A stretch of DNA of 64,000 nucleotides from a virus, in the IMG/VR virus record IMGVR_UViG_3300037993_001242, positions 64,001 to 128,000 of that record; one strand, 5' to 3'. Below are positions 142-57,137 of this stretch, in pieces. Numbering within the stretch: the stretch's first letter is position 1; every line of letters begins with the position of its first letter. The notes under the pieces are model-generated. The model saw only the letters and a program-made list of their open reading frames with translations, ran no database searches and had not been told where the DNA came from. The position numbers and the translations under genes were made by a program.

Positions 142-218
142 TGGTAGCCCGGATGGGTTTCGATCCCATGATCTCTGCCTTGAAGGGGCAGCGTGTTAGC
201 CAGCTACACTACCGGGCC
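142..218 (-). tRNA. tRNA-Glu(UUC)
   Basis: Cloverleaf, CTGCC-CC-TTC-AA-GGCAG, CCA; T-loop ATCGAAA. Confidence 0.95.
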
Positions 219-224
219 GTAAAA

Positions 225-301
225 TGGTGCCAAGGGGTGGCTTCGATCCACCGACACAAAGATTTTCAGTCTTCTGCTCTACCGGGCTGAGCTACCTTGA
301 C
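225..301 (-). tRNA. tRNA-Phe(GAA)
   Basis: Cloverleaf, loop CT-GAA-AA, CCA; T-loop ATCGAAG. Confidence 0.95.
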
Positions 302-305
302 AAAG

Positions 306-382
306 TGGTCGTCACGGTTGGCTTCGATCCAACGGCCTGTCGGTTATCGACCGACTGCTCTACCGGGCTGAGCTACGTGACG
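306..382 (-). tRNA. tRNA-Ile(GAU)
   Basis: GTCGG-TC-GAT-AA-CCGAC (C33), CCA; T-loop ATCGAAG. Confidence 0.93.
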
Positions 383-386
383 AAAT

Positions 387-520
387 ATAACGGGCAAGGA
401 TCGGCGTGGATGTTTTTAGCGCTCTACCGTTGAGCTATCCCGGCATTGGAGCCGGGAACAGGACTCGAACCTGTATCTCCTCATTAGCATTGAGATAACC
501 CACAACACTTCGGCCCGTTA
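387..520 (-). ncRNA. Y RNA (YrlA-like) with circularly permuted tRNA module
   Basis: Terminal stem TAACGGGC(C)GA/TTGCCCGTTA with bulged C; inside, T arm, acceptor 3' strand-T-CCA, AT linker, acceptor 5' strand, D arm. Confidence 0.85.
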
Positions 521-523
521 AAA

Positions 524-611
524 TGGCGGCGGGTAAAGGAATCCAACCTCTGCTGCTGTTACGCAGGCCACAGTTTTCGGAACTGGCACCTTAGCGCTCG
601 GTCAACCCGCC
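524..611 (-). tRNA. tRNA-Ser(CGA)
   Basis: Long variable arm, loop TC-CGA-AA, G73-CCA; C19/G56. Confidence 0.9.
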
Positions 612-626
612 AAAAATCAATTACGG

Positions 627-716
627 TGGCGGAGGGGCAAGGATTTGAACCTTGGCACGTATTACCGTGGCCTCAACTTTCCAAGCTGGCACCTTACCGG
701 ACTCGGTCAACCCTCC
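627..716 (-). tRNA. tRNA-Ser(GGA)
   Basis: Long variable arm, loop TT-GGA-AA, G73-CCA; canonical T-loop. Confidence 0.95.
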
Positions 717-718
717 AC

Positions 719-1072
719 TCAGGCGATGATCGCGTACTGAAGCTCGTATCCGCGCTCTTTAACAAAATCATCAACTGCTTCCCGTTGCATGGGATTTAGT
801 GCTTCCGTGTTAGCGTACATAACGCGCCGCTCCACCGTGGCACGCACCCAACCAAGCTGTTTCATGTGCGAATACACATTCATGACTTTAGGATTTTTGA
901 TGACGTTCTCCTGTGCCCATTTTTGGTGGCCACCCACCTTGGTTATTTTGCCCTCTGGGCTGATCCAGTAATTGTCGGGCATAGGCTGCCACATGGTGCG
1001 CCCGTATACATCTTTACCGTAATCGATGCGCCCATATTCGAGCAGTGCGTCCACGACTTGTTTTGCGTCCAC
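719..1072 (-). CDS. Hypothetical protein with N-terminal AKQVVDALLE tag
   Basis: ORF-track start lies inside tRNA-Ser; GTG at 1072 follows GTAGTTA-N4. Confidence 0.75.
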   Translation of the reverse strand: MDAKQVVDALLEYGRIDYGKDVYGRTMWQPMPDNYWISPEGKITKVGGHQKWAQENVIKNPKVMNVYSHMKQLGWVRATVERRVMYANTEALNPMQREAVDDFVKERGYELQYAIIA

Positions 1073-1087
1073 GTCGTAACTACAAAA

Positions 1088-1175
1088 TGGCGGAGGGTAC
1101 AGGGATTCAACCTGTGCCGGTTTTACCCGGTCGACGGTTTTCAAGACCGTAGCATTCGCGCTCTGCCAACCCTCC
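1088..1175 (-). tRNA. tRNA-Ser(UGA)
   Basis: ACGGT-CT-TGA-AA-ACCGT, long variable arm, G73-CCA; C19/G56. Confidence 0.93.
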
Positions 1176-1176
1176 G

Positions 1177-1253
1177 TGGCGTCCCCGGCAGGAGTCCAAC
1201 CTGCGACACAGTCGTTTAGGAAACGACGGCTCTTGCAACTGAGCTACGGGGAC
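1177..1253 (-). tRNA. tRNA-Arg(CCU)
   Basis: GTCGT-TT-CCT-AA-ACGAC, CCA; C19/G56. Confidence 0.93.
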
Positions 1254-1257
1254 AAAA

Positions 1258-1875
1258 TCAAGTGACCAGATAACCACCACGCAGGAAACCGTGCCAGCCG
1301 CCACACACGATTGATCCGGCACCGGCGGCGCAGGTGTTCCCGTTCTTGTCTACGGTCAAATCTGGCGCAATGCCATGGCGCACCCAACATTCGTGCGGTT
1401 CCTTGGGCCGGGTGCAGTTGGAAGCCTGACTGTCAATCGACCACTCGCCGCCCGGCGTCCGGCAGACATAGTAATGCCCGTCCGAGCGTTTATAGCTGTC
1501 CGGCATCCACGCGGCGTCCCAGATAGCCCCCACGGGCGGCTGGCGCAGCGATGCAAGCTCCTGCGTGTCCGAACGCTGGTACAGCCGGTCGTAATTGACC
1601 TGCCATTCGTCACTTTCCAGAAACACATAGCCGCAGGCACATTGGCGGGGCCAGCGGAGATCATCGTGCGGAAACTGTTTCTCGTCATCGCCGCACGTCG
1701 GATGCTCGGCGTATTCAATCTTGGGATTGATTTCGGTGCTCACGTCGTGGTAGCCCTGTGGCAACGGGCATGGATTTTTGGGCGTATCCTCGCGCCAGTC
1801 CGACCGATACCGGCGCAGGGACAGGTTGTAAAAATTTGTGGGCGTCAGCAGAAAGCAACGGATCGGTTTACACAT
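1258..1875 (-). CDS. Hypothetical Cys/His/Trp-rich protein
   Basis: 205-aa ORF, GTATTTA-N4-ATG. Confidence 0.75.
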   Translation of the reverse strand: MCKPIRCFLLTPTNFYNLSLRRYRSDWREDTPKNPCPLPQGYHDVSTEINPKIEYAEHPTCGDDEKQFPHDDLRWPRQCACGYVFLESDEWQVNYDRLYQRSDTQELASLRQPPVGAIWDAAWMPDSYKRSDGHYYVCRTPGGEWSIDSQASNCTRPKEPHECWVRHGIAPDLTVDKNGNTCAAGAGSIVCGGWHGFLRGGYLVT

Positions 1876-1914
1876 GCCTTAAATACCGGCGATTATGACT
1901 GTATTTAGGTAGCT

Positions 1915-2373
1915 ATGATGCCTGAAAGTCGTTCGATTGCGCTTCAGCTTGCGCAGCGGTTCGTCGAATACAAGGACAGGATCGAGGAGGTTGCCGCGCA
2001 GGTGCGCCGCCACAAACGAATCCTCGATCTTTGCCCGGTGCCGATGTTTTTGACGGATGAACACGGGAAATGCGTCTACGTCAATCCCGCCAAACTCAAA
2101 CTCGTCGGGGGCACCCTTGGCGAAATGCAGTACGACGGTTGGCAGCACTTTGTTTACCCGGAAGACCTGCCCCACTTGCTGAACGCGTGGACTCAATTCG
2201 TTTTAGACCACAACCAGCACACTTTTTCGTATACGTACCGGTATCAGCGCGCTGATGGCTCGGTGCTGGAAGTTGTGACCGAAGCCAGAATGCTGGACGA
2301 CCACAGCATTGTCGGTTTTGTGCTGCCCGTGAAATGCAGCGGCTGTTTCGATTTTTTCACTGTACACGGATAA
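1915..2373 (+). CDS. Stand-alone PAS-domain protein
   Basis: PAS pattern PMFLTDEHGKCVYVNPA...WQHFVYPED...YRYQRADGS. Confidence 0.85.
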   Translation: MMPESRSIALQLAQRFVEYKDRIEEVAAQVRRHKRILDLCPVPMFLTDEHGKCVYVNPAKLKLVGGTLGEMQYDGWQHFVYPEDLPHLLNAWTQFVLDHNQHTFSYTYRYQRADGSVLEVVTEARMLDDHSIVGFVLPVKCSGCFDFFTVHG

Positions 2374-2447
2374 TGCCTTTTTCATTTGGTGTATTTACTC
2401 CACAAGGTGTTTTTCCTTGAAGTTAAAATACGCAAAATCCATATAAA

Positions 2448-2903
2448 ATGAACAACATAATCAAAGCAACAACTGTCGGTTTGATCTGCACTGCGTCGCT
2501 GCTGGTCTGTCCGCTGTCCACGAAGGCGCAGTTCGTAACCAATCTCGTCACCTTCAGCAATGTGGTCATTCGGTCATCATCAGATGTCACCGGCCCTTAC
2601 ACTAATTTGTTTACGTTGCCGGATGTTACCCTTGAGTACCGGTATCACGTGGGATCGCTTCAACCGTTTTTTTATCATTTTAAGCTGAGCACGCCGGTCA
2701 TTGATGCTGATCTGTTTGAAACCAGCTTGACGCTCCAATATGCCTTCAATGCGGGCGGCCCTTACGATGACATTTATACTTATCCAACCATTGCTGTTAC
2801 CAATCCGGCAGGAAACGCCTTTTTCCGTTCTGCTTTCGATTTGACCGACACTAATTTTGTGTTCGTTGACCCTTACACCGTTCAGTTTGTACCGCCGCCA
2901 TAA
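2448..2903 (+). CDS. Secreted protein
   Basis: Signal peptide ending TKA-Q; beta-rich mature part. Confidence 0.7.
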   Translation: MNNIIKATTVGLICTASLLVCPLSTKAQFVTNLVTFSNVVIRSSSDVTGPYTNLFTLPDVTLEYRYHVGSLQPFFYHFKLSTPVIDADLFETSLTLQYAFNAGGPYDDIYTYPTIAVTNPAGNAFFRSAFDLTDTNFVFVDPYTVQFVPPP

Positions 2904-2906
2904 AAT

Positions 2907-2983
2907 TGGCACTCCCGGCAGGATTCCAACCTGCGACCTTGAATTTAGAAAATTCCTGCTCTATGCAACTGAGCTACGGGAGC
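2907..2983 (-). tRNA. tRNA-Arg(UCU)
   Basis: Loop TT-TCT-AA, CCA; C19/G56. Confidence 0.93.
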
Positions 2984-3015
2984 AAAAACGCGCAGCCGAA
3001 TCAACGGCTGCGCGT
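2984..3015 (-). terminator. Intrinsic terminator-like hairpin
   Basis: 11-bp GC stem ACGCGCAGCCG/CGGCTGCGCGT followed by T run on minus strand. Confidence 0.6.
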
Positions 3016-3035
3016 AAAATAGGCACAGCAACGAG

Positions 3036-3923
3036 TCAAGGTGAAGCTAACCTGTAAAATTTATGTGGTACTGACGGGGAAGCAGGAATAATGACTCCTG
3101 ATGCCGAAGTCATCGTCGTCGCGTAACCATCACTATTAGTCACTGTATATCCACATGAGCCATTGGTCACGATTGGAATCCCTTGTGAATCATACACGAC
3201 GTAAACGATATTAGCCAATTTAGACGCACTATAGCCAAAATACGTACCCCAATCAGAAACTGGTTGGGATACCCAGTTGGGAATAGACGTATAGCTTACC
3301 CAACCGGTGGCCGAATAAATTTCCTGACTCCATTGTACCAAATCAGTGGTGGACTCAAGATGTGCCGTGGTCATGGGATTGCCCTGTGTATCAAGGATTC
3401 CGGCCCGTGGAACAAAATTGGTAAAAGTGGTGCTGAATGACCAAATGTAAATGTTCGTCTGCCAGTCAGTCCATCCATTGTCAATGGCGCTCCAATAGTA
3501 AACAGTAGAATTGTTGGTCGCTATCAGGGCTTGACTGCTGTTGGTCTGGCCACTATTCTCCGCTGCCGGTTGCATTATAGCCTGCTGTTTAAGCAGGGGA
3601 GGGAAAAACGGCGGCATTGGAGGGAAAAACGGCGGTGGTGGAGGCGCTGGAGTCGGGGGCGGCTGCGCCGGAGTCGGTGCCGGAGTCGCTGGCGCAGACG
3701 GAAGACAACTGTTCAACCACATTACAAGGACTACGCCGCCTGCCGTTACAATCACTATCATAATTGCACCACATATTTGCACCGTTTGGTTGGGCTGTAC
3801 GGGGTTAGCCGCAAGCTGTTTGTTGGTATTCTCAGCATACACAGGCAGTATAAGCAGGATGACCATGAGGCTGACTGCGATCAAACGACACATTATTGAT
3901 TGAGTGAATTTTGATGTTTTCAT
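3036..3923 (-). CDS. Exported/membrane protein with Pro-rich linker
   Basis: Signal peptide, TM segment, poly-Pro linker, Asn/Thr-rich domain with ESTTDLVQW. Confidence 0.75.
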   Translation of the reverse strand: MKTSKFTQSIMCRLIAVSLMVILLILPVYAENTNKQLAANPVQPNQTVQICGAIMIVIVTAGGVVLVMWLNSCLPSAPATPAPTPAQPPPTPAPPPPPFFPPMPPFFPPLLKQQAIMQPAAENSGQTNSSQALIATNNSTVYYWSAIDNGWTDWQTNIYIWSFSTTFTNFVPRAGILDTQGNPMTTAHLESTTDLVQWSQEIYSATGWVSYTSIPNWVSQPVSDWGTYFGYSASKLANIVYVVYDSQGIPIVTNGSCGYTVTNSDGYATTMTSASGVIIPASPSVPHKFYRLASP

Positions 3924-3927
3924 AGAC

Positions 3928-4173
3928 TTACTTTTTGAGCAATGCTGCGAGCGCCATCAAGAAACAGCCTGCATTCACACAGTGAAGACCAATCTGACCG
4001 ACTTTGGGTGAAACCCACGGGGAGACAAAAAACCCCACTATTAGAATGTAAGCAATCCAGCAGGCAGTAAATATGACAAGCCGATTTTGGTGCTCCTTAC
4101 ACCAATTTCCGTAAGCTTGCCATCCGCGTTGGAGCGGCGCACGCACCGACCTGATTAGTTTTTCAGGTTTCAT
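3928..4173 (-). CDS. Small two-TM membrane protein
   Basis: ATG 6 nt after a sigma70 -10 box; two hydrophobic segments. Confidence 0.7.
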   Translation of the reverse strand: MKPEKLIRSVRAPLQRGWQAYGNWCKEHQNRLVIFTACWIAYILIVGFFVSPWVSPKVGQIGLHCVNAGCFLMALAALLKK

Positions 4174-4179
4174 ACCCAA

Positions 4180-4208
4180 ACTGTATGCGTCCAACAGGCG
4201 ATTGTCAA
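4180..4208 (-). promoter_or_regulatory. Sigma70-type promoter (leaderless)
   Basis: TTGACA-N17-TACAGT-N6-ATG. Confidence 0.75.
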
Positions 4209-4266
4209 CAGGAAATTACAAGACTGTAAGCATACGGTGTAAACGATTTGTATACAATAAGTTAAA

Positions 4267-4342
4267 TGGCTCCAGAGGCTGGGCACGATCCAGCAACATC
4301 CCGGTTAACAGCCGGGTACTCTACCAATTGAGCTACTCTGGA
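4267..4342 (-). tRNA. tRNA-Asn(GUU)
   Basis: CCCGG-CT-GTT-AA-CCGGG, G73-CCA; T-loop ATCGTGC. Confidence 0.95.
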
Positions 4343-4350
4343 ATAAAAAG

Positions 4351-4444
4351 CTTTTCAGCGACGGCAGTGCCTATGCCTGCGGCCCTGTAGGGGCGGCTTT
4401 GCACACAGTAGGCTTGCCGTGTGCAATCTTTACGCCGCTGAAAA
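4351..4444 (-). ncRNA. Unassigned four-way-junction RNA
   Basis: Closing stem TTTTCAGCGGCG/CGTCGCTGAAAA plus three internal hairpins. Confidence 0.45.
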
Positions 4445-4445
4445 A

Positions 4446-4518
4446 TGGTCGCGCCGGACGGAGTTGAACACGTCATCTCGCACTTCCGGGTGCCGCTCTA
4501 ACATTAAGCTACGGCGCG
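4446..4518 (-). tRNA. Atypical tRNA, 6-nt anticodon loop CCGGAA (identity uncertain)
   Basis: Intact acceptor CGCGCCG/CGGCGCG-A-CCA and D arm; anticodon arm GCAC-CCGGAA-GTGC; bulged T stem. Confidence 0.6.
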
Positions 4519-4526
4519 TTTTAAAA

Positions 4527-4602
4527 TGGTCGGGACAACCGGGCACGATCCGGCAACCTCTCGGCCCCAAACCGAGCGCTCTACCAATTGAGCTATGCCC
4601 CG
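4527..4602 (-). tRNA. tRNA-Pro(UGG)
   Basis: CTCGG-TT-TGG-GG-CCGAG, C1-G72, A73; T-loop ATCGTGC. Confidence 0.95.
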
Positions 4603-4796
4603 TCAGCAATGTAAAAATTGTTTTCTTCTCGCGGACATTCCTCATTCAAAAGAACCAAGCATCGCCGTATGCTTACATCGGACGTTCCATAACTTTCCGT
4701 GCAATGATCGCAGCGAGAACACGTCACAATAACGCTTGGTACCGGCCCGTGATCACCGTCCAATTCTGTTTCTTCAACAGTACATTCAACACGCAT
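4593..4796 (-). CDS. Small Cys-rich hypothetical protein
   Basis: MRVECTVEE...CSRCDHC; stop codon inside tRNA-Pro. Confidence 0.6.
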   Translation of the reverse strand: MRVECTVEETELDGDHGPVPSVIVTCSRCDHCTESYGTSDVSIRRCLVLLNEECPREENNFYIADGA

Positions 4797-4814
4797 ACAG
4801 CGTAGAACTGAAAA

Positions 4815-4891
4815 TGGTCTGGGTGACAGGCTTCGATCCTGCAACCTCGTGTACCCGAAACACGCGCTCTACCAGATTGAGCTACACCCAG
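4815..4891 (-). tRNA. tRNA-Pro(CGG)
   Basis: CGTGT-TT-CGG-GT-ACACG, CCA; T-loop ATCGAAG. Confidence 0.95.
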
Positions 4892-4900
4892 TTGAAATGG

Positions 4901-5200
4901 TCAGTCAATGATGACCGGAGAATCTGAATTAAGCCATGCAAAAAGAGTTGATCCTTTGTGCTGCTGAATAAGCAAACGCGACTGATGCCCGCAGCACGAG
5001 CAGTCAAAATTGATTATTATTGCGTTTCTACGCCCCTGCATTTTTGTTTCTGGAACTGCCTCACTTTTTGGAGGATACGTACCTTGGATGGTCATCTTAA
5101 TTCCGTCGCCATCTTCAAAATGGGGTCTCTCATATATTTCGATCATGCTGTGGTGCATGTCGGCTGTTTCCCGACAGTTTGGACAAGCTAGTGCGTTCAT
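4901..5200 (-). CDS. Hypothetical Zn-binding protein
   Basis: CPNC near N-terminus and CSCC near C-terminus; fills gap between tRNAs. Confidence 0.7.
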   Translation of the reverse strand: MNALACPNCRETADMHHSMIEIYERPHFEDGDGIKMTIQGTYPPKSEAVPETKMQGRRNAIIINFDCSCCGHQSRLLIQQHKGSTLFAWLNSDSPVIID

Positions 5201-5220
5201 ACGCCCACAAGAACGTAAAA

Positions 5221-5297
5221 TGGTCGGGATGACGGGCTTCGATCCCGTGACCTCCAGTCCCCCAGACTGGCGCGCTACCTGACTGCGCTACATCCCG
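5221..5297 (-). tRNA. tRNA-Pro(GGG)
   Basis: CCAGT-CT-GGG-GG-ACTGG, CCA; T-loop ATCGAAG. Confidence 0.95.
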
Positions 5298-5298
5298 G

Positions 5299-5586
5299 TT
5301 AAGATTTGGTTGGTATGGCATCAGCCAGCCGCGCCAAAACATCACCATGACAGGGCATCGGCCAGCACCAGCAACCCAACGTTTTGTCCTTCAATTCGTG
5401 CAGGCTGGCCAACAACTCTGGCTGAGTTTTAATCCAGTCTTCATACATGGCGATGACTTCGTCGCGGGTGCCGTCGGCTCCGATCCGGTAGGGGTTGCCC
5501 CACTTTGAACCTTCTGGAAAATCACGCGTACCTCGTCCGATGTATACATCGAATTTACTGTGCTTGCAATGGACAACTTTAGTCAT
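5299..5586 (-). CDS. DUF4326-family protein
   Basis: VVHCK...FDVYIGRG...SKWGNPY...LGCWCWPMPCHGDVL. Confidence 0.85.
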   Translation of the reverse strand: MTKVVHCKHSKFDVYIGRGTRDFPEGSKWGNPYRIGADGTRDEVIAMYEDWIKTQPELLASLHELKDKTLGCWCWPMPCHGDVLARLADAIPTKS

Positions 5587-5607
5587 ACTCCACAAGAACC
5601 AAAAGTT

Positions 5608-5688
5608 CCCCAAGCGGCAGGAGCACCGCCCGCCCGCGTTACTTCGTCACTGCCTGACTAACAGACCGTTGCGATGCTCAGCTTGGGT
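5608..5688 (-). ncRNA. Unassigned structured RNA, possible pseudoknot
   Basis: CCCAAGC/GCTTGGG and GAGCATCGC/GCGGTGCTC stems; bulge CTGCC complementary to internal GGCAG. Confidence 0.45.
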
Positions 5689-5692
5689 AAAT

Positions 5693-5758
5693 TGGCGGCC
5701 CTCGATATTACGGCGGCTGCGCCGCCACAAGAAGTGGCCACTTCTTGTATCTCAGGCC
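5693..5758 (-). ncRNA. Non-canonical three-way-junction RNA ending G-CCA
   Basis: GGCCT-GA-GATA/TATC-GA-GGGCC-G-CCA with two perfect hairpins. Confidence 0.55.
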
Positions 5759-5761
5759 AAA

Positions 5762-5839
5762 TGGCGGGACGTACGGGCTTCGATCCCGTGACCTTCCGGT
5801 AGACAGCCGGTTGCTCTAGCCAGACTGAGCTAACGTCCC
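5762..5839 (-). tRNA. tRNA-Asp(GUC)
   Basis: Loop CT-GTC-TA, G73-CCA; T-loop ATCGAAG. Confidence 0.93.
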
Positions 5840-5844
5840 AAAAA

Positions 5845-6150
5845 TTATGATCCGACGAGTTCGTCAGTGCCTTCCCACGTAAACTCCGAAACCGGCAGGT
5901 GCATTCCACACTGACAACAGTAGGTCGCACCGTAAAATTTTGGGTCGCGAGCGTAAGTTTCAGCGATGGCCAAGGCCATGGTCGTTTTCGCCCGGCAGGT
6001 ATTGTGGATGTACGACTGACGTACCGGTCGAATGAATCCTTTGGCGCGCTCCTCTTCGGACAGCACGAGGTATTTTTTCATCTGCGGTGTCGGCACTTTG
6101 TCCGCACCGTATCCTAAATCGGGGTCTTTTGGATCAGTTGTCAAACTCAT
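5845..6150 (-). CDS. Hypothetical phage protein (MSLTTDP...TYCCQC)
   Basis: True start after GTAGTTA-N5; the longer ORF-track call runs through tRNA-Tyr. Confidence 0.75.
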   Translation of the reverse strand: MSLTTDPKDPDLGYGADKVPTPQMKKYLVLSEEERAKGFIRPVRQSYIHNTCRAKTTMALAIAETYARDPKFYGATYCCQCGMHLPVSEFTWEGTDELVGS

Positions 6151-6164
6151 ACCTTTAACTACGT

Positions 6165-6226
6165 TGGCGGGCTTGGCTGTTAATTCAGCCCGTAGCGCGC
6201 CACGCGGCGGATCAGGCCGCAAGCCC
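6165..6226 (-). ncRNA. 62-nt mini-cloverleaf RNA lacking an anticodon loop, ending G-CCA
   Basis: GGGCTT/AAGCCC-G-CCA plus three hairpins; middle loop is the tetraloop CGCG. Confidence 0.6.
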
Positions 6227-6231
6227 ATAAA

Positions 6232-6322
6232 TGGTGGCAACGGCTGGAGTCGAACCAGCGGTGTTTTCCTCTTGGGTAGCGCTTTTACAGAGCGTTGTCT
6301 TCGCCACTTGACGCACGTTGCC
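6232..6322 (-). tRNA. tRNA-Tyr(GUA)
   Basis: Loop CT-GTA-AA, long variable arm, A73-CCA; canonical T-loop. Confidence 0.95.
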
Positions 6323-6333
6323 GTATTTAAAAC

Positions 6334-6846
6334 ATGAAAATCATTTACGCTATGGTTGTGGCTCTTGTCCTGACTGGCTGTGCAACTCAGCGGGGATTCC
6401 CGCCGAATAACGGCATCGGCAACTTTGACCGCTTGGACGACAAAGTCTATCGCGGCGCACAACCCTCGCACGAAGCCATTGCCAAACTGGCAAAAGCTGG
6501 CGTGACCAGAGTAATCAATCTCCGCCTGCCCGGCGATACGGCACCGTACGAAAAATCGGCGTGTCGGGCCGAAGGCATCGAATACTTCAACGTACCCATT
6601 GGTGGTTTTTCCGCTCCCACTGATGCCCAAGTACACCGGGTATTTTCTTTGATTGAGACCGCCCATGGGCCGGTCTACATCCATTGCCAGTGGGGCTGTG
6701 ACCGCACCGGAACCATGTGCGCCTGCTGGCGAATCCATCACGATGGCTGGAGCAATGCACAGGCACTACAGGAAGCCGTCATTTACGGCCTGTCACCTTG
6801 GGAACAGAGCATGAGGTACTACATCCTGCATTACCACGAAAAATAA
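6334..6846 (+). CDS. Lipoprotein Cys-based (dual-specificity/tyrosine) phosphatase
   Basis: Lipobox LVLTGC; CX5R loop HCQWGCDRTG. Confidence 0.85.
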   Translation: MKIIYAMVVALVLTGCATQRGFPPNNGIGNFDRLDDKVYRGAQPSHEAIAKLAKAGVTRVINLRLPGDTAPYEKSACRAEGIEYFNVPIGGFSAPTDAQVHRVFSLIETAHGPVYIHCQWGCDRTGTMCACWRIHHDGWSNAQALQEAVIYGLSPWEQSMRYYILHYHEK

Positions 6847-6932
6847 CGGGCAAGGTTTTGGCATCGGGTATGCTGGGTTTCCCCGGCGGTTTGTATCAAT
6901 AACAAGATAACCGACAGTCCATTCGGCCCGTA
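6843..6932 (-). ncRNA. Y RNA (short form, no tRNA module)
   Basis: Same terminal stem as 387-520 (ACGGGC(C)GAA...GGTTATCT...CCTTGCCCGT). Confidence 0.8.
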
Positions 6933-6935
6933 AAA

Positions 6936-7011
<76 letters not shown>

Positions 7012-7016
7012 AAAAG

Positions 7017-7457
7017 TTATTCTTCATCTGCTGATTCCCAGTTGTTGCAGCAACCGCCCCAAAAAATCGGGCCGGTTACTTCTTTGCAGGAGCCTTCGTC
7101 CTTGCCGCCGGAATAATACTCGCAGTTGCCACAATGTGTCGGCCCATCCTCGATGTATCCGACGGCTTCTTTGGGCAGCAACTCCAGTGGCGTCGCACCT
7201 TCTTTCAGGAAAGTTTTGCCCCCGATGAAGGCTGCGCACACGCCATGTTCACCATCACAAGCTGGCGGCGTTGTGACGAAGCACTCACTCTTGGGCGTGT
7301 TAAAGAATATGCACTTGCCACAACGCGCACCGGGATCGGTTTGACCGGATTTGTTGAGCATGTCCGGGGTCATGTATACAACCTGTGCTTGGAGCATTTT
7401 GCCATCTTCGGCTTCATGCTCTTGCAGTCCCATCACCCGGCGCAAAATCGGATTCAT
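7017..7457 (-). CDS. Tandem HiPIP-like (4-Cys) protein
   Basis: Two CxxC...C...C units; second is CGNCEYY...C...GGCCNNW; GTATTTA-N4-ATG. Confidence 0.6.
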   Translation of the reverse strand: MNPILRRVMGLQEHEAEDGKMLQAQVVYMTPDMLNKSGQTDPGARCGKCIFFNTPKSECFVTTPPACDGEHGVCAAFIGGKTFLKEGATPLELLPKEAVGYIEDGPTHCGNCEYYSGGKDEGSCKEVTGPIFWGGCCNNWESADEE

Positions 7458-7474
7458 GCCCTAAATACCGGTCT

Positions 7475-7514
7475 GAAAATAGAAGGCCGGGGGGCTTCCA
7501 CGCTCCCCGGCCTA
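7475..7514 (-). terminator. Intrinsic terminator
   Basis: AGGCCGGGG/CCCCGGCCT stem followed by TCTATTTT. Confidence 0.65.
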
Positions 7515-7520
7515 AGTTTT

Positions 7521-7730
7521 ATACCAAGGCGTTTTTGAACTTTGATCGCCAACAGCCTGCTGTCCTTAGCTTAATCCCGGCGCTTTACCGCTGAGCTACA
7601 CCGCCATAGTTTTATGGGGGCGGTGACTGGATTTGAACCAGCGACTCCGGTTTGTTAGACAACACCTGTCAGGTCACGTCTTGCTATTGTGTAACGCACT
7701 AGGTGCGCTACGGTTGAGCCTTCGGGTGAT
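7521..7730 (-). ncRNA. Long Y RNA (YrlA-like) with permuted tRNA module
   Basis: ACC(C)GA/TTGGT bulged helix; T arm-CACCGCC-C-CCA, 9-nt linker, GGCGGTG, D arm; long extended stem. Confidence 0.72.
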
Positions 7731-7818
7731 AGCCTGACATTGAACTTTAATTTTAACCATCACCTTGAGCTTGGGCGAGCGGCCCGTAAAATCAATTTAC
7801 AGGCCGCCGCACCCGAAA

Positions 7819-8031
7819 TTATGGTTTGCCCTCCAGTTGTTTCAGCCGTTCTTTATAGATTTTTTCAATCTCGCTTTCCCTTATACCCCGAAGATTGCGG
7901 CCACCGGCATTCATACACGTCGCGTGCTCTTGCGTATTCGTGGTCAGCCTCTGCGCTTTTTCCATTTCAGCACGCCGCCACACGTCCAGTCTGCGTTTTG
8001 CGCTTTCGTCCATAAGACTATTTGTTGCCAC
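7819..8031 (-). CDS. Small charged hypothetical protein
   Basis: Overlaps the stop region of the upstream gene. Confidence 0.45.
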   Translation of the reverse strand: MATNSLMDESAKRRLDVWRRAEMEKAQRLTTNTQEHATCMNAGGRNLRGIRESEIEKIYKERLKQLEGKP

Positions 8032-8782
8032 TGAACACGAAGCTCAGCAACTGCTTGCCGATCTTCTTGGTCAGGTCGACTTCTTCGTCGTTGGCCCGTG
8101 AGCGCGCCCGGCGGACGGCTCGCGTCAGGATTTCGATCCGGTCGAGCAGTTCGGCTTTTTCCGCCGGGGTGATCAACGAAGACCACTCCTTTTCCTCAAC
8201 CTTGCCTACCGGCACATCGATGGCCAGCAACTGAGTCTGAGCCGGATGTTCCTTGGTGGCGTCGTACAGCACAATCGGCTTGGACTGTTTCTGCGTGCGA
8301 ATCTTGATCACTTCGCGTGCTTTGTAAACACCAGCGCCGCGCTGCGCATCCGCCACGAAACCCTTGGCCGGATCGAGCGTCGGGATGACCGCGATCAACT
8401 GCTGGATTTCCGTGCAGCGCTTTTCAAGCTCCAGCAGCGCCGTCGCCGGGACATCCTTAATTAGCACGGTACCCGCGTCGTCATCAAGCACGATGTCGGC
8501 CTTCGCCCGTGTATTGGCGTCAGCCACCTGATACGAGGCGTCGAGTGCCTTGGTCAGATGACCCTGAATCCATGTCAGTTCCTTGCCGACCGAGGTCTGC
8601 AAGAAGGACTGGGCTTCGGTCTGCGGCTCGGCTTTTTCCGCGTCGGGTTTGAAGACGACGTGCTTTTCCTCGAAAAGATGCCGCTTCTTTTCAAAGGTGT
8701 TGGCCTGATCGGTGCGGCACTTTTCGGCCTGCTGTTTCAGGCTGGTTTCAACTGCCAAAAGTTCATGTAGTTTGGTTGACAT
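8018..8782 (-). CDS. Conserved-looking large-phage hypothetical protein
   Basis: 254-aa helical ORF behind a sigma70 promoter. Confidence 0.8.
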   Translation of the reverse strand: MSTKLHELLAVETSLKQQAEKCRTDQANTFEKKRHLFEEKHVVFKPDAEKAEPQTEAQSFLQTSVGKELTWIQGHLTKALDASYQVADANTRAKADIVLDDDAGTVLIKDVPATALLELEKRCTEIQQLIAVIPTLDPAKGFVADAQRGAGVYKAREVIKIRTQKQSKPIVLYDATKEHPAQTQLLAIDVPVGKVEEKEWSSLITPAEKAELLDRIEILTRAVRRARSRANDEEVDLTKKIGKQLLSFVFSGNK

Positions 8783-8791
8783 AGTGGTTGG

Positions 8792-8819
8792 AGTGTATAC
8801 GCGTTAGATTTCTTGTCAA
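8792..8819 (-). promoter_or_regulatory. Sigma70-type promoter
   Basis: TTGACA-N16-TACACT. Confidence 0.7.
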
Positions 8820-8829
8820 CTTAAAATTT

Positions 8830-8905
8830 TGGTGGAGCCGAGGGGGTACGATCCCCTGACCTCCTGAATGCCATTCAGGCGCTCTGCCAACTGAGCTACG
8901 ACCCC
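8830..8905 (-). tRNA. tRNA-Ala(GGC)
   Basis: G3-U70, loop AT-GGC-AT, CCA; T-loop ATCGTAC. Confidence 0.95.
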
Positions 8906-8909
8906 AAAA

Positions 8910-9180
8910 GGGTGCTGCTGCCCGTTTTTCGCAGGCGTCGCCTTCCCGTTCACGGCTGGTTAGGTCTCAATTCTCCAGACGCTTATGGACTTGGCGCAAT
9001 AGTTGGCATCACGCACACGCCGCCCAAGACCGGGGCGTGCTCCGCGCTTAGTACACCAACCCGCAGCATAAATTAAAGAGCCGGGCCGAGTTTGCGACAG
9101 CGATTGCAACCGCCGCGCCTGATCGTGTGGCCTCTGCGTCCACCTTCCGGTGCGCAACCGGAATACTCCCCGGATACCGT
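8910..9180 (-). ncRNA. Unassigned structured RNA region (probably two units)
   Basis: Nested helices, e.g. TTCCGGT/ACCGGAA, GTTGGTGT/ATGCCAAC, GCACGCC/GGCGTGT; no credible ORF. Confidence 0.4.
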
Positions 9181-9184
9181 CGTC

Positions 9185-9259
9185 TGGTGGAGCCGATGGG
9201 GATTCAACCCACGACCTCCCGCGTGCGAGGCGGGCGCTCTGGCGCTGAGCTACGACCCC
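9185..9259 (-). tRNA. tRNA-Ala(CGC)
   Basis: G3-U70, CCCGC-CT-CGC-AC-GCGGG; C19/G56. Confidence 0.93.
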
Positions 9260-9266
9260 AAATGAA

Positions 9267-9553
9267 TTCCCCAGATGTCAGGAATCACCCAACATAGTCG
9301 CAAACGTGAGTCTTTATGAGTATTCGGCCATTTGGCTCCATCGGTAGCACTCCGACTTCGATACCAAAGCAGGGCTTTACCTGCAATACGGGTTGGTTTG
9401 ATTGGCACTTCCCGTAAACGACGTTAGCTGACCGAGCTACCTAATCAGCCTTAGCCACATTACGTTTGCCATGCTCTTCCCACGCTACGAGACGATTCCA
9501 AGCTTACGGAACCTGCCTTTGCCCCCACCAAAGAGGCTTCAGCCACTGGAGAA
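9267..9553 (-). ncRNA. Unassigned ~290-nt multi-helix RNA
   Basis: Terminal helix TTCTCCAG/CTGGGGAA, long-range GCAAACGT/ACGTTTGC, at least 5 local hairpins. Confidence 0.55.
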
Positions 9554-9555
9554 AT

Positions 9556-9631
9556 TGGTGGAATCGACCGGGAACGATCCGGCAACTTTCGGCTTGCAAA
9601 ACCGACGCTCTACCGATTGAGCTACGACCCC
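9556..9631 (-). tRNA. tRNA-Ala(UGC)
   Basis: G3-U70, loop TT-TGC-AA, CCA; T-loop ATCGTTC. Confidence 0.95.
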
Positions 9632-10071
9632 TTTGAAATTGATGCGCGATACGCTTTGAGTTTGACCCGCCGGTCATCGTCAAACGGAATTTCACCGCCC
9701 AAATGGACGCCTTCGTAAATGGCCTCCCGGAGCAGCAGTTCAACGTTCAGCGATTCCATGGCTTCGAGCAGCAGGTTGTCGCTTTGGTCTCTGGTCAACG
9801 TCGCCAACGTCCACGTACCGTCGCTGTTCAAAACTTGCAGGACGTTGCGGTAAGCGCCGTCGTGCAGGACGGTTCCCATCCAATAGGTGCCGAAAGGCGG
9901 AATGAGATTCCAGATCGCTTTGGGCGTGCTGGCCCCATCCGACGGGGAACCGGTCGGCATCATGTATTGGACGCCGTTTTTGGCCACGTACACGAGGTCT
10001 TCCAGCAGAACGATATGCCTGCCGTCACTGGTTTCGTTGGCAATCGTCGGCTTTTTGAATCCATATTCCAT
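9622..10071 (-). CDS. DUF1353-family protein
   Basis: SDGASTPKAIW...TVLHDGAY motif; GTAGTTA-N4-ATG. Confidence 0.85.
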   Translation of the reverse strand: MEYGFKKPTIANETSDGRHIVLLEDLVYVAKNGVQYMMPTGSPSDGASTPKAIWNLIPPFGTYWMGTVLHDGAYRNVLQVLNSDGTWTLATLTRDQSDNLLLEAMESLNVELLLREAIYEGVHLGGEIPFDDDRRVKLKAYRASISKGS

Positions 10072-10091
10072 GCCCTAACTACGCAACAAAA

Positions 10092-10165
10092 TGGAGCGAG
10101 TGAACGGTGTCGATCCGTCGTATCAGCCTTGGCAAGGCCGCGCTCTACCGTTGAGCTACACCCGC
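10092..10165 (-). tRNA. tRNA-Gly(GCC)
   Basis: CGGCC-TT-GCC-AA-GGCTG, U73-CCA; T-loop ATCGACA. Confidence 0.95.
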
Positions 10166-10231
10166 GTCACGCCGCGACATAACCGCGCTAAATCACGTTT
10201 CTAACACGTGCCAATCATGCAGCGGCAAAAA

Positions 10232-10307
10232 TGGCTGCCCGAAGTGGGGACGATCCACTACTCTTCTGATCCAGAGTCAGACGTGTTACCAGTTACACCA
10301 TCGGGCA
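10232..10307 (-). tRNA. tRNA-Gln(CUG)
   Basis: U1-A72, TCTGA-CT-CTG-GA-TCAGA, G73; T-loop ATCGTCC. Confidence 0.95.
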
Positions 10308-47559: not shown

Positions 47560-47633
47560 TGGCGCTTCCGACGGGGATCGAACCCGCGTGCTCCGTTTTA
47601 GAGACGAATGCCTTGCCACTAGGCTACGGAAGC
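47560..47633 (-). tRNA. Amber suppressor tRNA (anticodon CUA)
   Basis: 74-nt cloverleaf, TTCGT-CT-CTA-AA-ACGGA, G73-CCA, canonical T-loop. Confidence 0.9.
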
Positions 47634-50125: not shown

Positions 50126-50722
50126 ATGCTCCTGACCGGAATCAAAGAAATTGAACGCCGAATAAAGTGGCCTGTCGCCCGCTGGAATGGCAATTGCTAC
50201 GCCGTCGCCGTGGCTATTTTCAAGGCCAAGCTGGTTCCTGCCAAATCCCATGTCCGTTACGGCGTCTGGCACGGGCCGATTGCTTCCACCAGTTCCTTCG
50301 CCGGAAGACCTTTTACCCATCATGGATGGATTGAACTGCCCGATAACCAAATTTACGATCCGACGCGCTTTGTTTTTGAAGCTCAACGACCCTACATCTG
50401 GATTGGCACCGATGAAAAGGGCTACTATGATGTTGCCGGTCAGCGGTTGAACAAAATCTTTTATCGTGAATGCCCGGCTGCCGAAGAAAAACCTGTCAAG
50501 CTGACCGACCGACAACGCCAAGTCCTCGGACAGTTCCTCCCCTCCATCTGCAAACGTGATCCTGATTTTGGTCAGTTGATGTGGTTGGGAAACATGCCGC
50601 CGGATGAAATGAACGGCCAAGCCAAAGCTGTATACATTGTCCTTGAGGAATTAAATTTACAGGCATTGATCCCACTGGATTTCCGAAGATATGTTCTGGA
50701 AGACGACAAAGTTTACGCATGA
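50126..50722 (+). CDS. Hypothetical protein
   Basis: GNCY...HHGWI..IYDPT motif. Confidence 0.7.
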   Translation: MLLTGIKEIERRIKWPVARWNGNCYAVAVAIFKAKLVPAKSHVRYGVWHGPIASTSSFAGRPFTHHGWIELPDNQIYDPTRFVFEAQRPYIWIGTDEKGYYDVAGQRLNKIFYRECPAAEEKPVKLTDRQRQVLGQFLPSICKRDPDFGQLMWLGNMPPDEMNGQAKAVYIVLEELNLQALIPLDFRRYVLEDDKVYA

Positions 50723-55022: not shown

Positions 55023-55453
55023 AACGTATCTTTTTTGCCAGCCTGCTTTGTGCAATTGCCACCGGATGCACCAGTCTTCATGACACGGTGATCTCGTCCA
55101 CGGCCACGACCCTTGGCGTTGAAGTCTCCCAAAACCCCGCCACGCAGCTTTATCAAGCCAAGCTGGGCTATTGCCGGGCGGAACTGGCCTTCGTGCCCAC
55201 GGATCGTGGGCAAGCCACCAACCAAATCGGCGGGGCCGCCAGCACTGGCAACGTGATCATGGAATTGAGCTTGAAGAATATCTTTGCGGGTGGCGGAGTA
55301 TACCAACGGCTGGCCATCGGCAGCACAGCGGTAAGCCAACCCGGCGCAGTGTTCATGTTTGCCAAAGATCAAAACGGACAGATTTCAACCAACACCGCCG
55401 CCATCATTCAGCAAAATCTGCCGCTGATGCTGAACCGGCCAATGAAACCATAA
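55019..55453 (+). CDS. Lipoprotein
   Basis: Lipobox IATGC. Confidence 0.75.
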   Translation: MKRIFFASLLCAIATGCTSLHDTVISSTATTLGVEVSQNPATQLYQAKLGYCRAELAFVPTDRGQATNQIGGAASTGNVIMELSLKNIFAGGGVYQRLAIGSTAVSQPGAVFMFAKDQNGQISTNTAAIIQQNLPLMLNRPMKP

Positions 55454-55454
55454 C

Positions 55455-57137
55455 ATGCTTGCTGTATACACTTATTTTGATGCAAACGGCATTCAGCGTA
55501 ACGCTGAATCTAACGCATTTAATTTTGTCGGCACGTGGACACGGTCAGGAACTTATTCGTCCACTACACTGGACACGGTCAATTACAGCAACGGCCAGTT
55601 TACTTGCATCATAAACAACTATGGCAGCATTCCCGCAAATTCCTCAGCGTGGTCACCCCTCGTTTTGCGTATACCTGCATCCGGCACCGGCGTTGATGAA
55701 GCTTTAATCGTAGCTGAAGCAGCCTACTCTATTGCCGTTATAGGCACCAATGCTGCCGCACAGGCTCAACTCACTGCCAACACTGCCTTTTCGATTGCAG
55801 TTATTGGAACAAACACAGGGTCTAGTGCCTATGCACTGGCGGCAACCGCCGATGCTGTTGCACAGGAAGCGCTCAGCATCGCCATCATCGGGACTAACAT
55901 TGGAACCACAGCGTATAGCATAGCTACAACGGGAAGTAATGCAGTGTATCAAGGCTACACACTGTCCGGCATTGTAATTGCCACGGGAAGTAACTTTGCT
56001 AGTTTGGGTTTTACTCCACCGCCAAACACGCGGTTGATCAACACTGCTGCGCCTTTGGATGGCGGCGGTGATCTGAGTGCCGACCGGACAATCTCCATCA
56101 CTCAGTCCGGCACCAATACCGATGGTTATCTGTCCAGCACCGACTGGATTACATTCGAGACCGCTTCAACCAACGCTTCCGCTGCCCTTTTGGCTGCTGG
56201 AGCCGCCAGCGCCATTGCATCAACCGGCACTAACACAGCAAACGAAGCACTCAGTATTGCCATCATCGGTACCGATGTTGGAACCAATGCGTATACGTTA
56301 GCTACAACGGGAAGTAATACAGCTTGGGAAGCTCTTAGTATTGCTATCATAGGAACAAATGCTGCTGCTGCTGCTGTCCAGCCAGCACGCAACATCAACA
56401 CTAATACACCCTTGTCGGGTGGTGGCGATTTGAGCGCTGATCGCACACTTTCCATAACTCAATCCGGTTCCAACACCAGCGGTTATCTCTCGAACACCGA
56501 CTGGGGCACTTTCAATGCCAAAGTTACAACGACCCGCGCCATCAACACTAATGCACCTTTAACCGGCGGCGGAGATTTGTCCGCTGACCGGACGTTGTCA
56601 ATCACTCAATCGGGCAGCAATACCGACGGCTATCTATCCAGCACCGACTGGGGCACTTTCAATGCCAAACAAAACTCATTGGGCAATCTCAACGGAATCA
56701 TCAAAGGCAACGGCAGCAACACTTATACCGTGGCCACTTCGGGCACCGATTACGCTCCGGGATATTCTGGAGTTCCCGTTGGTGGCATCATCGCATGGGC
56801 AAAATCGCTAACCAACACGCCCGCACTGCCCATAGGCTACGTGGAATGCAATGGACAAACTTTAAGCGACGCAAACAGCGTCTATAACGGAATTGTCATT
56901 CCCAATCTGAACGGCTCCACGGACGCCACCAAGCGTTTCCTGCGCGGAGCCACAACTTCCGGCGGCACGGGTGGATCAGCCACACACACGCATAGTGTAG
57001 GCTCTGCTACCGATAACCATTTTATAACCAGTGCCTCTCCCATAGCCACTGCCGTAACCAGTATCTCTGTGTCCACCGGTTCAGCTTCCACGATACCAAC
57101 ATACTACGAAGTAGTCTATGTCATGCGCGTAAAATGA
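55455..57137 (+). CDS. Tail fibre-like protein with internal repeats and collar-like C-domain
   Basis: Three INT.(A/T)PL.GGGDLSADRT..ITQSG.NT.GYLS.TDW.TF repeats; VPVGGIIAW...VECNGQ...PNL. Confidence 0.75.
   Translation: MLAVYTYFDANGIQRNAESNAFNFVGTWTRSGTYSSTTLDTVNYSNGQFTCIINNYGSIPANSSAWSPLVLRIPASGTGVDEALIVAEAAYSIAVIGTNAAAQAQLTANTAFSIAVIGTNTGSSAYALAATADAVAQEALSIAIIGTNIGTTAYSIATTGSNAVYQGYTLSGIVIATGSNFASLGFTPPPNTRLINTAAPLDGGGDLSADRTISITQSGTNTDGYLSSTDWITFETASTNASAALLAAGAASAIASTGTNTANEALSIAIIGTDVGTNAYTLATTGSNTAWEALSIAIIGTNAAAAAVQPARNINTNTPLSGGGDLSADRTLSITQSGSNTSGYLSNTDWGTFNAKVTTTRAINTNAPLTGGGDLSADRTLSITQSGSNTDGYLSSTDWGTFNAKQNSLGNLNGIIKGNGSNTYTVATSGTDYAPGYSGVPVGGIIAWAKSLTNTPALPIGYVECNGQTLSDANSVYNGIVIPNLNGSTDATKRFLRGATTSGGTGGSATHTHSVGSATDNHFITSASPIATAVTSISVSTGSASTIPTYYEVVYVMRVK

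Follow-up and report, generated by a model that had tools for sequence, protein, structure and literature searches.

The T-loop bases U54-U55-C56, together with G18-G19 of the D-loop, are regarded as a near-universal core of tRNA. This report concerns a phage tRNA array in which the UUC part of this core is largely replaced. The array lies partly in a stretch of 64,000 nucleotides (hereafter, the window), bases 64001-128000 of the 199-kb IMG/VR virus record IMGVR_UViG_3300037993_001242, which is about 82% complete and has a G+C content of 53%. The window also carries genes for DnaB, a family A DNA polymerase and an NAD-dependent ligase, as well as baseplate genes.

Phage tRNAs are known to evade anticodon nucleases through changes in the anticodon loop (PMC10264068), and the tRNAs of phage T5 act against PARIS and retron effectors (PMC11464382, PMC11555353). 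The array considered here resembles the first case: its tRNAs differ from the cellular consensus exactly where a tRNA nuclease would read, their use in translation is kept, and the large set can be viewed as a replacement pool. It differs from anticodon-nuclease escape in that the site is the T-loop/D-loop elbow and partner changes are needed in another loop; moreover, the changes extend to about 80-95% of the set and through an entire phage clade, and the escape here is a proposed one. We consider the interpretation as a counter-defence of this known kind, here moved to the elbow, to be partly supported.

Readers of the required kind have been described. CbCash, a Schlafen nuclease activated by cyclic tetraadenylate (cA4), belongs to a type III CRISPR system of a Chloroflexi bacterium (PMC13462974, 2026); within the T-loop, it cleaves many tRNAs on the 5' side of U55; UUC is targeted, and a single mutation of U54 or U55 abolishes the cleavage. 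Its authors left open the targeting of phage tRNAs. The PD-(D/E)XK toxin CdiA-CT E479 cuts the T-loop as well (PMC9086364). The two offer what is required, namely, cleavage beside U55, dependence on U54, U55 and a UUC motif, and action on many tRNAs; both were characterised on E. coli tRNAs, and their link to this phage is an analogy.

The variant elbows themselves also have precedents. The A54-A58 contact with a purine at position 60 was structurally solved in the eukaryotic initiator tRNA (PMC7566577, PMC7912444), and its occurrence there means that this trans Watson-Crick/Hoogsteen pair is viable. Like the initiator and the metazoan AGC-tRNA-Ala (A54/A58, purine 60; PMC7566577, PMC7912444), 12 phage tRNAs carry the T-loop AUCGAAR, usually with an enlarged D-loop. 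Unlike these eukaryotic tRNAs, they are bacterial-type elongators of many specificities and of unrelated origin; where the metazoan tRNA-Ala has the R15/A48 pair, the phage tRNA-Glu, the one tRNA read by eye in this respect, has G15 and C48. The same loop types occur in evidently functional native bacterial tRNAs (tRNA-His with A54-U58, tRNA-Phe with A54/A58); however, these number one to three per genome, against most of the set in this phage. We found no description of a systematic elbow remodelling in phage tRNAs in open-access papers or in bioRxiv.

Elbow classes and their compensation

The tRNAs were located with ARAGORN and the Rfam model RF00005, and the D- and T-loops were taken from the ARAGORN structure strings. 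All window tRNAs were found on the minus strand where the first-pass annotation had placed them (Table 1). RF00005 gives 20 matches in the window (36-62 bits at a cut-off of 29), 41 in the whole record and 95 in the relatives described below. The array, on the minus strand, begins about 14 kb ahead of the window and spans 50.3-74.3 kb of the whole record, whose coordinates are marked G000 here; the elbow pattern continues beyond window positions 142-10307, along the entire array. In the whole record ARAGORN finds 40 tRNA-like genes and a transfer-messenger RNA (tmRNA), to which Rfam adds tRNA-Ser(CGA) and five tRNA-Leu genes. The latter, missed by ARAGORN, have an unusual cloverleaf (G000 50525-50616, 56094-56184, 56500-56590, 58445-58626), four with UUC and one with UCC. 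The resulting set is near-complete, with all 20 amino acids covered.

A recount of the loops agrees exactly with the initial description of the window. Only tRNA-Ser(GGA), tRNA-Tyr and the CUA suppressor, among 21 tRNAs, keep the canonical UUC. A54 is present in 13; it is joined by U58 in six of them (Asn, Pro-UGG, Trp, Ala-GGC, Ala-UGC, Gln) and by A58 with a purine at position 60 in seven (Glu, Phe, Ile, Pro-CGG, Pro-GGG, Asp, Gly), where the D-loop measures 9-10 nt, except for 7 nt in Gly. The remaining five have C19-G56 (Ser-CGA, Ser-UGA, Arg-CCU, Arg-UCU, Ala-CGC). The tRNA-like modules of Y RNAs retain canonical T arms, as had been noticed; the accompanying idea that they serve as decoys is speculative. 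At the scale of the whole record, about 36 of 45 tRNAs are non-UUC and more classes are seen. Three Arg tRNAs have U19-A56 (T-loop UUAAAxU, with GU in the D-loop of two and GA in that of Arg-UCG, AAUGAUA), one Met tRNA combines A19-U56 with A54-U58, and C55 is found in Gln-UUG, His and one Leu. Four of the five Leu tRNAs, Tyr, Cys, Ser-GGA and the suppressor are canonical, together with the tmRNA and three Y-RNA tRNA-like modules. UUC loops are enriched in class II tRNAs (6/11 vs 2/34, p=0.0013).

The elbow positions were then tabulated across the phage tRNAs and their relatives, as the first-pass annotation proposed, and the trait was found in the whole record and in five syntenic relatives. 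The relatives were reached only via LigA homologues on long metagenomic contigs (LigA identity 91% for L371, L372 and L374, 75% for L373 and L375, 55% for L376, 52% for L377 and 57% for L378). The five syntenic loci share the order DnaB, PolA, LigA, tRNA array; pooled with this phage, they make six records with 140 tRNAs. The non-UUC tRNAs amount to 34/38 in this phage and to 29/32, 24/25, 15/16, 12/13 and 15/16 in the relatives. Thus, the consensus elbow G18 G19/U54 U55 C56/A58 is not followed: UUC is missing from 18/21 tRNAs in the window and from 129/140 in the clade. The solutions of the close relatives are A54 and the 19-56 pairs; the distant ones mostly have a UGC loop with A18 as its D-loop partner, and also UGG with C19.

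The changes in the two loops are coupled. The D-loop has GG in 78/78 pooled tRNAs with YC at positions 55-56 and in 0/62 otherwise (Fisher test, 3e-41); GC accompanies G56 in 14/14 cases, and AG accompanies G55 in 22/27. Individually, U54 is kept in 76 of the 140 tRNAs, U55 in 96 and C56 in 105, and the only property common to all variant classes is the loss of UUC at 54-56. The rest of the architecture is retained: G53, C61 and R57 are present in 140/140, with a 7-nt T-loop and the G53-C61 closing pair; U8 and A21 are each found in 135/140, and U8, A21 and U33 are conserved at 93-96%. Since these positions are conserved, only 54/55/56 and, as their partners, 58/18/19 are affected by the change. 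Of the 140 genes, 138 encode CCA. Other features of usable tRNAs can be read directly from the window sequences, including G3-U70 in all three Ala, U73 in Gly, A1-U72 with G73 in Trp, and U1-A72 with G73 in Gln and Asn; tRNA-His has G-1 with C73. The view of the swaps as compensatory changes in tRNAs that look functional is borne out by the perfect covariation between the D-loop and T-loop, the invariant G53/C61/R57, the encoded CCA and the bacterial identity elements. Broken pseudogenes are rejected as the main explanation on the grounds of the strict covariation, the Rfam scores and the encoded CCA.

Background frequency and turnover

In an IMG/VR control sample anchored on the anticodon arm of tRNA-fMet, and thus blind to the elbow, 324 of 347 T-loops (93%) are UUC, and the 11 arrays of 8-20 tRNAs hold 0-5 variants, mostly none. 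Non-selected tRNAs are about 84% UUC in a sample anchored on A54; at the background rate of 0.16, the binomial probability of at least 36 non-UUC tRNAs among 45 is 4e-21, which assumes independent genes, and paralogues are not independent. Every variant class of this phage occurs in other phage arrays of a sample anchored on A54-U58, usually 1-3 per array, and the D-loop partners there are identical (A19 with U56, U19 with A56, C19 with G56, A18 with G55). Many phage arrays of 12-25 tRNAs hold 0-1 variants. A scan of IMG/VR anchored on G55 gave no further variant-dominated array; it mostly matched coding sequence, and 70 of its 118 loci had no tRNA.

The examined bacterial genomes have 0-3 variant tRNAs each. 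None, including 301 Actinomycetota genomes, has more than two matches to the A54 pattern, while this phage has 14; a Chloroflexia genome has 29 UUC and 2 UCC loops among 31 tRNAs. Native tRNA-His with A54-U58 occurs in Kiritimatiellia, Verrucomicrobia, Lentisphaerae, Chloroflexota (Anaerolineales, Chloroflexia), the Candidate Phyla Radiation (CPR) and Pelagibacteraceae; the CPR tRNA-Ala(GGC) has an A54-U58 loop too. A54/A58 was said not to be observed in bacterial tRNAs in a paper on tRNA-Ala (PMC7566577); tRNA-Phe(GAA) with A54/A58/G60 (AUCGACG) is present in about 17 of the 301 sampled Actinomycetota genomes (e.g., G110:C1:2319003-2319047); three unpublished genomes of this sample are not relied on for any conclusion. 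Since other phages and bacteria carry single variants, the elbow variants are natural and functional, and it is their density in this phage that is exceptional. For the same reason the initial notion of an "orthogonal code" should be abandoned: each variant is also found singly in cellular tRNAs, in tRNA-His of the Planctomycetes-Verrucomicrobia-Chlamydiae group, Chloroflexota, CPR and SAR11 and in tRNA-Phe of Actinomycetota.

A related array was encountered on a 7.8-kb contig binned with a Chloroflexaceae metagenome-assembled genome (MAG). It holds 27 CCA-encoding tRNAs in 3.6 kb (L174:2903-6543), mostly with UGC and A18, and its tRNA-Asn is 87.5% identical to that of this phage. The contig is probably phage DNA akin to the distant relatives, and its binning gives a weak hint at the host.

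The elbow classes are replaced rapidly. They differ in 16-17 of the 30 isoacceptors shared with the relatives at 91% and 75%, and most of these switches are between two non-UUC classes. In the order of this phage, the 91% relative and the 75% relative, the loops are AUCGACA, AUCGUAC and AUCGAUA in Gly-GCC; UUGAAUC, UUGAAUC and AUCGAAG in Ala-CGC; AUCGAAG, UCCGAAU and UCCAAAU in Pro-GGG; UUCGAGU, UCUGACU and UCUGACU in Cys; UUCGACU, UUCGACU and UGCGAGU in Tyr. The identity of the few canonical tRNAs varies among the genomes, and a return to UUC is rare. Part of the switching must be due to anticodon shifting or gene conversion between paralogues, because most switches fall in the Ala, Arg, Pro, Thr and Gly families. 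The single-isoacceptor tRNAs Cys, Tyr, His and Val-GAC switch too. The Pro-GGG orthologues look mosaic, with the same acceptor and anticodon arms and a different T arm.

Possible causes of the elbow change

Stacking on the flat 19-56 pair is the main way in which the elbow is recognised by RNase P, by the L1 stalk of the ribosome and, in some bacteria, by T-boxes (PMC4810234); hence, any Watson-Crick pair at 19-56 is tolerated, and the first-pass annotation overstated its case in listing them among the readers of these base contacts. With the essential machinery relying mainly on stacking, suspicion falls naturally on a reader of the sequence. We tentatively prefer the proposal that the elbow change is an escape from such a reader, although we would give it somewhat less than an even chance. 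The elbow of these working phage tRNAs is rebuilt so that the T-loop is no longer U54-U55-C56 and all tertiary contacts are kept. The routes are A54 with A58 or U58; G56, A56 or U56 with the complementary base 19; C55; and, in the distant relatives, G55 with A18. Over the long term, this jumbo-phage clade would have been selected to escape a factor whose recognition depends on the sequence of the T-loop rather than on the shape of the elbow. A T-loop endonuclease may be the best candidate, be it from host defence or from conflict between bacteria; Cash-type Schlafen nucleases and PD-(D/E)XK tRNase toxins like CdiA-CT E479 are examples. The sequences show the pattern, its compensation, its extent over the clade and its turnover; the nuclease as a cause, and the choice of the nuclease, we infer. 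The ribosome, RNase P and EF-Tu, as readers of shape, would still accept the altered tRNAs, and the near-complete set would let translation go on once the host tRNAs are cut.

The UUC motif needed by CbCash is missing in about 80-95% of the phage tRNAs and is kept in the bacterial and other phage controls. The original idea of evasion finds support as concerns a sequence-specific reader of the elbow or T-loop, where the precedents of CbCash and CdiA-CT E479, the clade-wide anti-UUC pattern and the fast turnover favour it; however, the escape cannot be complete, with eight tRNAs canonical, and no nuclease was found in the phage record, in which a search for the Schlafen domain was negative.

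Several points weigh against the proposed escape. The eight canonical tRNAs, the tmRNA and the three Y-RNA modules listed above keep UUC, and a nuclease that cuts every UUC loop would therefore still stall translation. Class II tRNAs could be spared if they are poor substrates, which is a post hoc suggestion. The resistance of UUG and UUA loops to CbCash was not reported (PMC13462974); that of the AUC, UGC, UCC, UUG and UUA loops is a prediction from data on single mutants only. If isosteric elbows are equally fit and the upkeep of UUC is lost, drift would produce the same pattern, and part of the class switches could reflect anticodon shifting or gene conversion between paralogues, with no new compensatory change. 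Finally, Schlafen PF04326 was not found in the phage record, nor were a CCA-adding enzyme (PF01743), AcrIII-1 (PF08960), RtcB (PF01139) or an Rnl2-type RNA ligase (PF09414); with the record incomplete, these absences are weak.

Drift under relaxed constraint deserves the most attention among the alternatives, although we consider it unlikely. It assumes that the upkeep of UUC (e.g., the need for m5U54 and Psi55 made by the host TrmA and TruB) was lost and that the elbows wander among isosteric states, with anticodon shifts and gene conversion and without any enemy. Variant elbows do work in cells, as in the A54-U58 tRNA-His of several phyla, the A54/A58 tRNA-Phe of Actinomycetota and the UCC loops of a Chloroflexia genome. 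UUC is just one of many viable combinations, and at neutral equilibrium most tRNAs would lack it. The path from U54-A58 through A54-A58 to A54-U58 passes viable single steps, and most of the switching falls in families with several isoacceptors (Ala, Arg, Pro, Thr, Gly), in which a switch can be mimicked by a single-base change of the anticodon. However, other large phage arrays are 93-100% UUC, so the status of a phage array is insufficient, and there is no known cause for a clade-specific release of the constraint. The change from G19-C56 to C19-G56 has no viable intermediate and yet is the commonest variant at position 56, in unrelated tRNA bodies. Switching is also seen in the single-isoacceptor Cys, Tyr, His and Val-GAC.

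The remaining alternatives appear less probable. An offensive version, according to which a phage enzyme destroys or disables host tRNAs through the canonical T-loop and hands translation over to the immune phage set, seems improbable to us. The near-complete coverage of the amino acids, the many open reading frames (ORFs) of unassigned function between the tRNAs and the presence in the array of a PD-(D/E)XK gene, a family that includes T-loop tRNases, agree with it, but this protein matches the structure of a homing endonuclease (2OST) and not a tRNase, and the Schlafen search, as stated, was negative. In addition, the phage's own Leu, Tyr and Cys tRNAs, tmRNA and Y RNAs keep UUC and would be hit, and the benefit is doubtful as phage tRNAs could still read host mRNAs. 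We assign a similarly low probability to the avoidance of a reader that is not a nuclease, be it a host T-loop modification enzyme (TrmA/TrmFO, TruB, TrmI) or a sensor of the T-loop state, with the tRNAs unmodified or unseen at 54, 55 and 58. The changes coincide exactly with the modified positions and their recognition neighbours (54, 55, 56, 58), with the architecture kept, and U54, U55, C56 and A58 form the conserved core in the T-loop modification literature (PMC7912444); against this, no phage benefit is known from lacking m5U54, Psi55 and m1A58, which stabilise tRNA, and U55 is still present in part of the clade tRNAs (96/140, as counted above) and A58 in many.

A conflict at the DNA level, where homing endonucleases or integrases reading tRNA genes select altered T-arm DNA and gene conversion shuffles tRNA segments among co-infecting relatives, is slightly less probable still. 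An I-Ssp6803I-like PD-(D/E)XK gene (PF11645) does lie in the array just before the window (G000 63238-63627 or 63238-63699, minus strand; match to PDB 2OST, E 5.5e-6), and the relatives hold one or two PD-(D/E)XK copies as well as HNH and GIY-YIG genes at varying places of the array. Such shifting positions, with the mosaic appearance of Pro-GGG, suggest endonuclease-driven mosaicism, which weakens the case for nuclease escape. However, homing endonucleases need long gene-specific sites and not a 3-nt motif common to 40 genes, their genes are common in phage tRNA regions with canonical T-loops, and they account for the turnover but not for its direction away from UUC. Host mimicry, in which the host lineage itself is non-UUC and the phage tRNAs resemble it, is very improbable and is rejected as the main explanation. 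It could refer to the reduced or unusual lineages with variant elbows in a few tRNAs and to the array binned with the Chloroflexaceae MAG, but only 0-3 variant tRNAs were seen in each bacterial genome examined, the MAG array with its tightly packed CCA-encoding tRNAs looks like phage DNA, and two dialects inside one phage clade are hard to explain in this way.

The array and its implications

Table 1. tRNA genes and tRNA-like elements of the window (window positions; percentages refer to the relatives described in the text)
Feature	Position	Strand	T-loop and remarks
tRNA-Glu(UUC)	142..218	-	AUCGAAA (A54/A58/A60); 9-nt D-loop with GG
tRNA-Phe(GAA)	225..301	-	AUCGAAG (A54/A58/G60)
tRNA-Ile(GAU)	306..382	-	AUCGAAG (A54/A58/G60)
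Y RNA tRNA-like module (ARAGORN label 'Ser-gct')	447..514	-	canonical T arm UUCGAGU (arm at 458-474), then CCA
tRNA-Ser(CGA)	527..614	-	Rfam only; UUGGAUU (G56); D-loop GC not GG (C19-G56)
tRNA-Ser(GGA), class II	627..716	-	canonical UUCAAAU
tRNA-Ser(UGA)	1088..1175	-	UUGAAUC; D-loop GC (C19-G56)
tRNA-Arg(CCU)	1177..1253	-	UUGGACU; D-loop AGUUGCAA (C19-G56)
tRNA-Arg(UCU)	2907..2983	-	UUGGAAU; D-loop AGUUGCAUA (C19-G56)
tRNA-Asn(GUU)	4267..4342	-	AUCGUGC (A54/U58); class identical in both close relatives
Odd tRNA-like RNA	4449..4521	-	Rfam 36 bits; good acceptor stem, ACCA end, D-loop without GG, UUCAACU-like T region, no clear anticodon loop
tRNA-Pro(UGG)	4527..4602	-	AUCGUGC (A54/U58); 91% relative: UUGAAAU with C19
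tRNA-Pro(CGG)	4815..4891	-	AUCGAAG (A54/A58/G60)
tRNA-Pro(GGG)	5221..5297	-	AUCGAAG; relatives: UCCGAAU or UCCAAAU (C55)
tRNA-Asp(GUC)	5762..5839	-	AUCGAAG (A54/A58/G60)
tRNA-Tyr(GUA), class II	6232..6322	-	canonical UUCGACU; 75% relative: UGCGAGU with A18 in D-loop
tRNA-Trp(CCA)	6936..7011	-	AUCGUGG (A54/U58)
Further Y-RNA-like tRNA module, T arm	7626..7642	-	canonical UUCAAAU
tRNA-Ala(GGC)	8830..8905	-	AUCGUAC (A54/U58); relatives: AUCGAAG
tRNA-Ala(CGC)	9185..9259	-	UUGAAUC; D-loop AGCGCCA (C19-G56); 75% relative: AUCGAAG with GG
tRNA-Ala(UGC)	9556..9631	-	AUCGUUC (A54/U58); unchanged in relatives
tRNA-Gly(GCC)	10092..10165	-	AUCGACA (A54/A58/A60); relatives: AUCGUAC, AUCGAUA
tRNA-Gln(CUG)	10232..10307	-	AUCGUCC (A54/U58)
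CUA-anticodon (amber suppressor-type) tRNA	47560..47633	-	canonical UUCGAUC

Some other features of the array should be mentioned. A Ro60 (TROVE) gene lies inside it, and beside this gene is the phage tmRNA (G000 55346-55771, minus strand) with a canonical T arm and an ARAGORN-predicted tag of 33 residues, which is unusually long. In the middle of the array, on the strand opposite to the tRNAs, a gene for a phosphatase of the dual-specificity/PTP type was found (window 6334-6846, plus strand; PF22741, PF22785, PF00782). It is kept in a 91% relative (L371 17479-17991), and one possibility is that it acts as an RNA-end phosphatase. Of the ORFs between the tRNAs, hardly any matched a Pfam or PHROG family. 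A54 converts the T-arm DNA from GGTTC to GGATC, so that 13 window tRNA genes and 26 ARAGORN-found genes in the record contain a GATC site; these sites are probably incidental, as the G55 sub-clade has none.

No close isolate phage was found by DNA search or by PolA protein search, and a single-sequence PolA search of IMG/VR was empty as well. Matches to actinophage tRNA-Trp genes were considered as a lead to the host or ancestry and rejected: they cover the D and anticodon arms only, and the T-loops of those genes and of most neighbours are canonical, with the exception of one tRNA-Gln with AUCGAAG in phage Leaf. The distant relative L378 encodes a tubulin-family protein (PF00091; L378:19685-20815), as do some jumbo phages.

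As to the significance of the observation, the phage lineage decodes with a full set of tRNAs largely without the UUC core, in at least six compensated designs; therefore, this sequence, unlike the shape, is dispensable for bacterial translation and tRNA processing. Something else must normally hold UUC in place or, in this lineage, select against it. There is also a practical side: tRNA finders tuned to GG/UUC under-score such genes. We are inclined to see here a soil and peat jumbo-phage clade in an arms race with nucleases that read the T-loop sequence, its elbows being rebuilt in interchangeable compensated ways (A54, G55/A18, N19-N56), though we hold this view as provisional and short of probable. 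If a T-loop nuclease is indeed the driver, the idea of counter-defence by phage tRNAs would extend from the anticodon loop to the elbow, and the question on phage tRNA targeting left open in the Cash paper would be answered. Phage genomes would then be seen, for the first time, to be shaped by immunity directed at the T-loop, of which Cash is an example, and the clade would represent a natural library of translation-competent "UUC-less" tRNAs, that is, nuclease-resistant tRNA scaffolds ready for synthetic biology.

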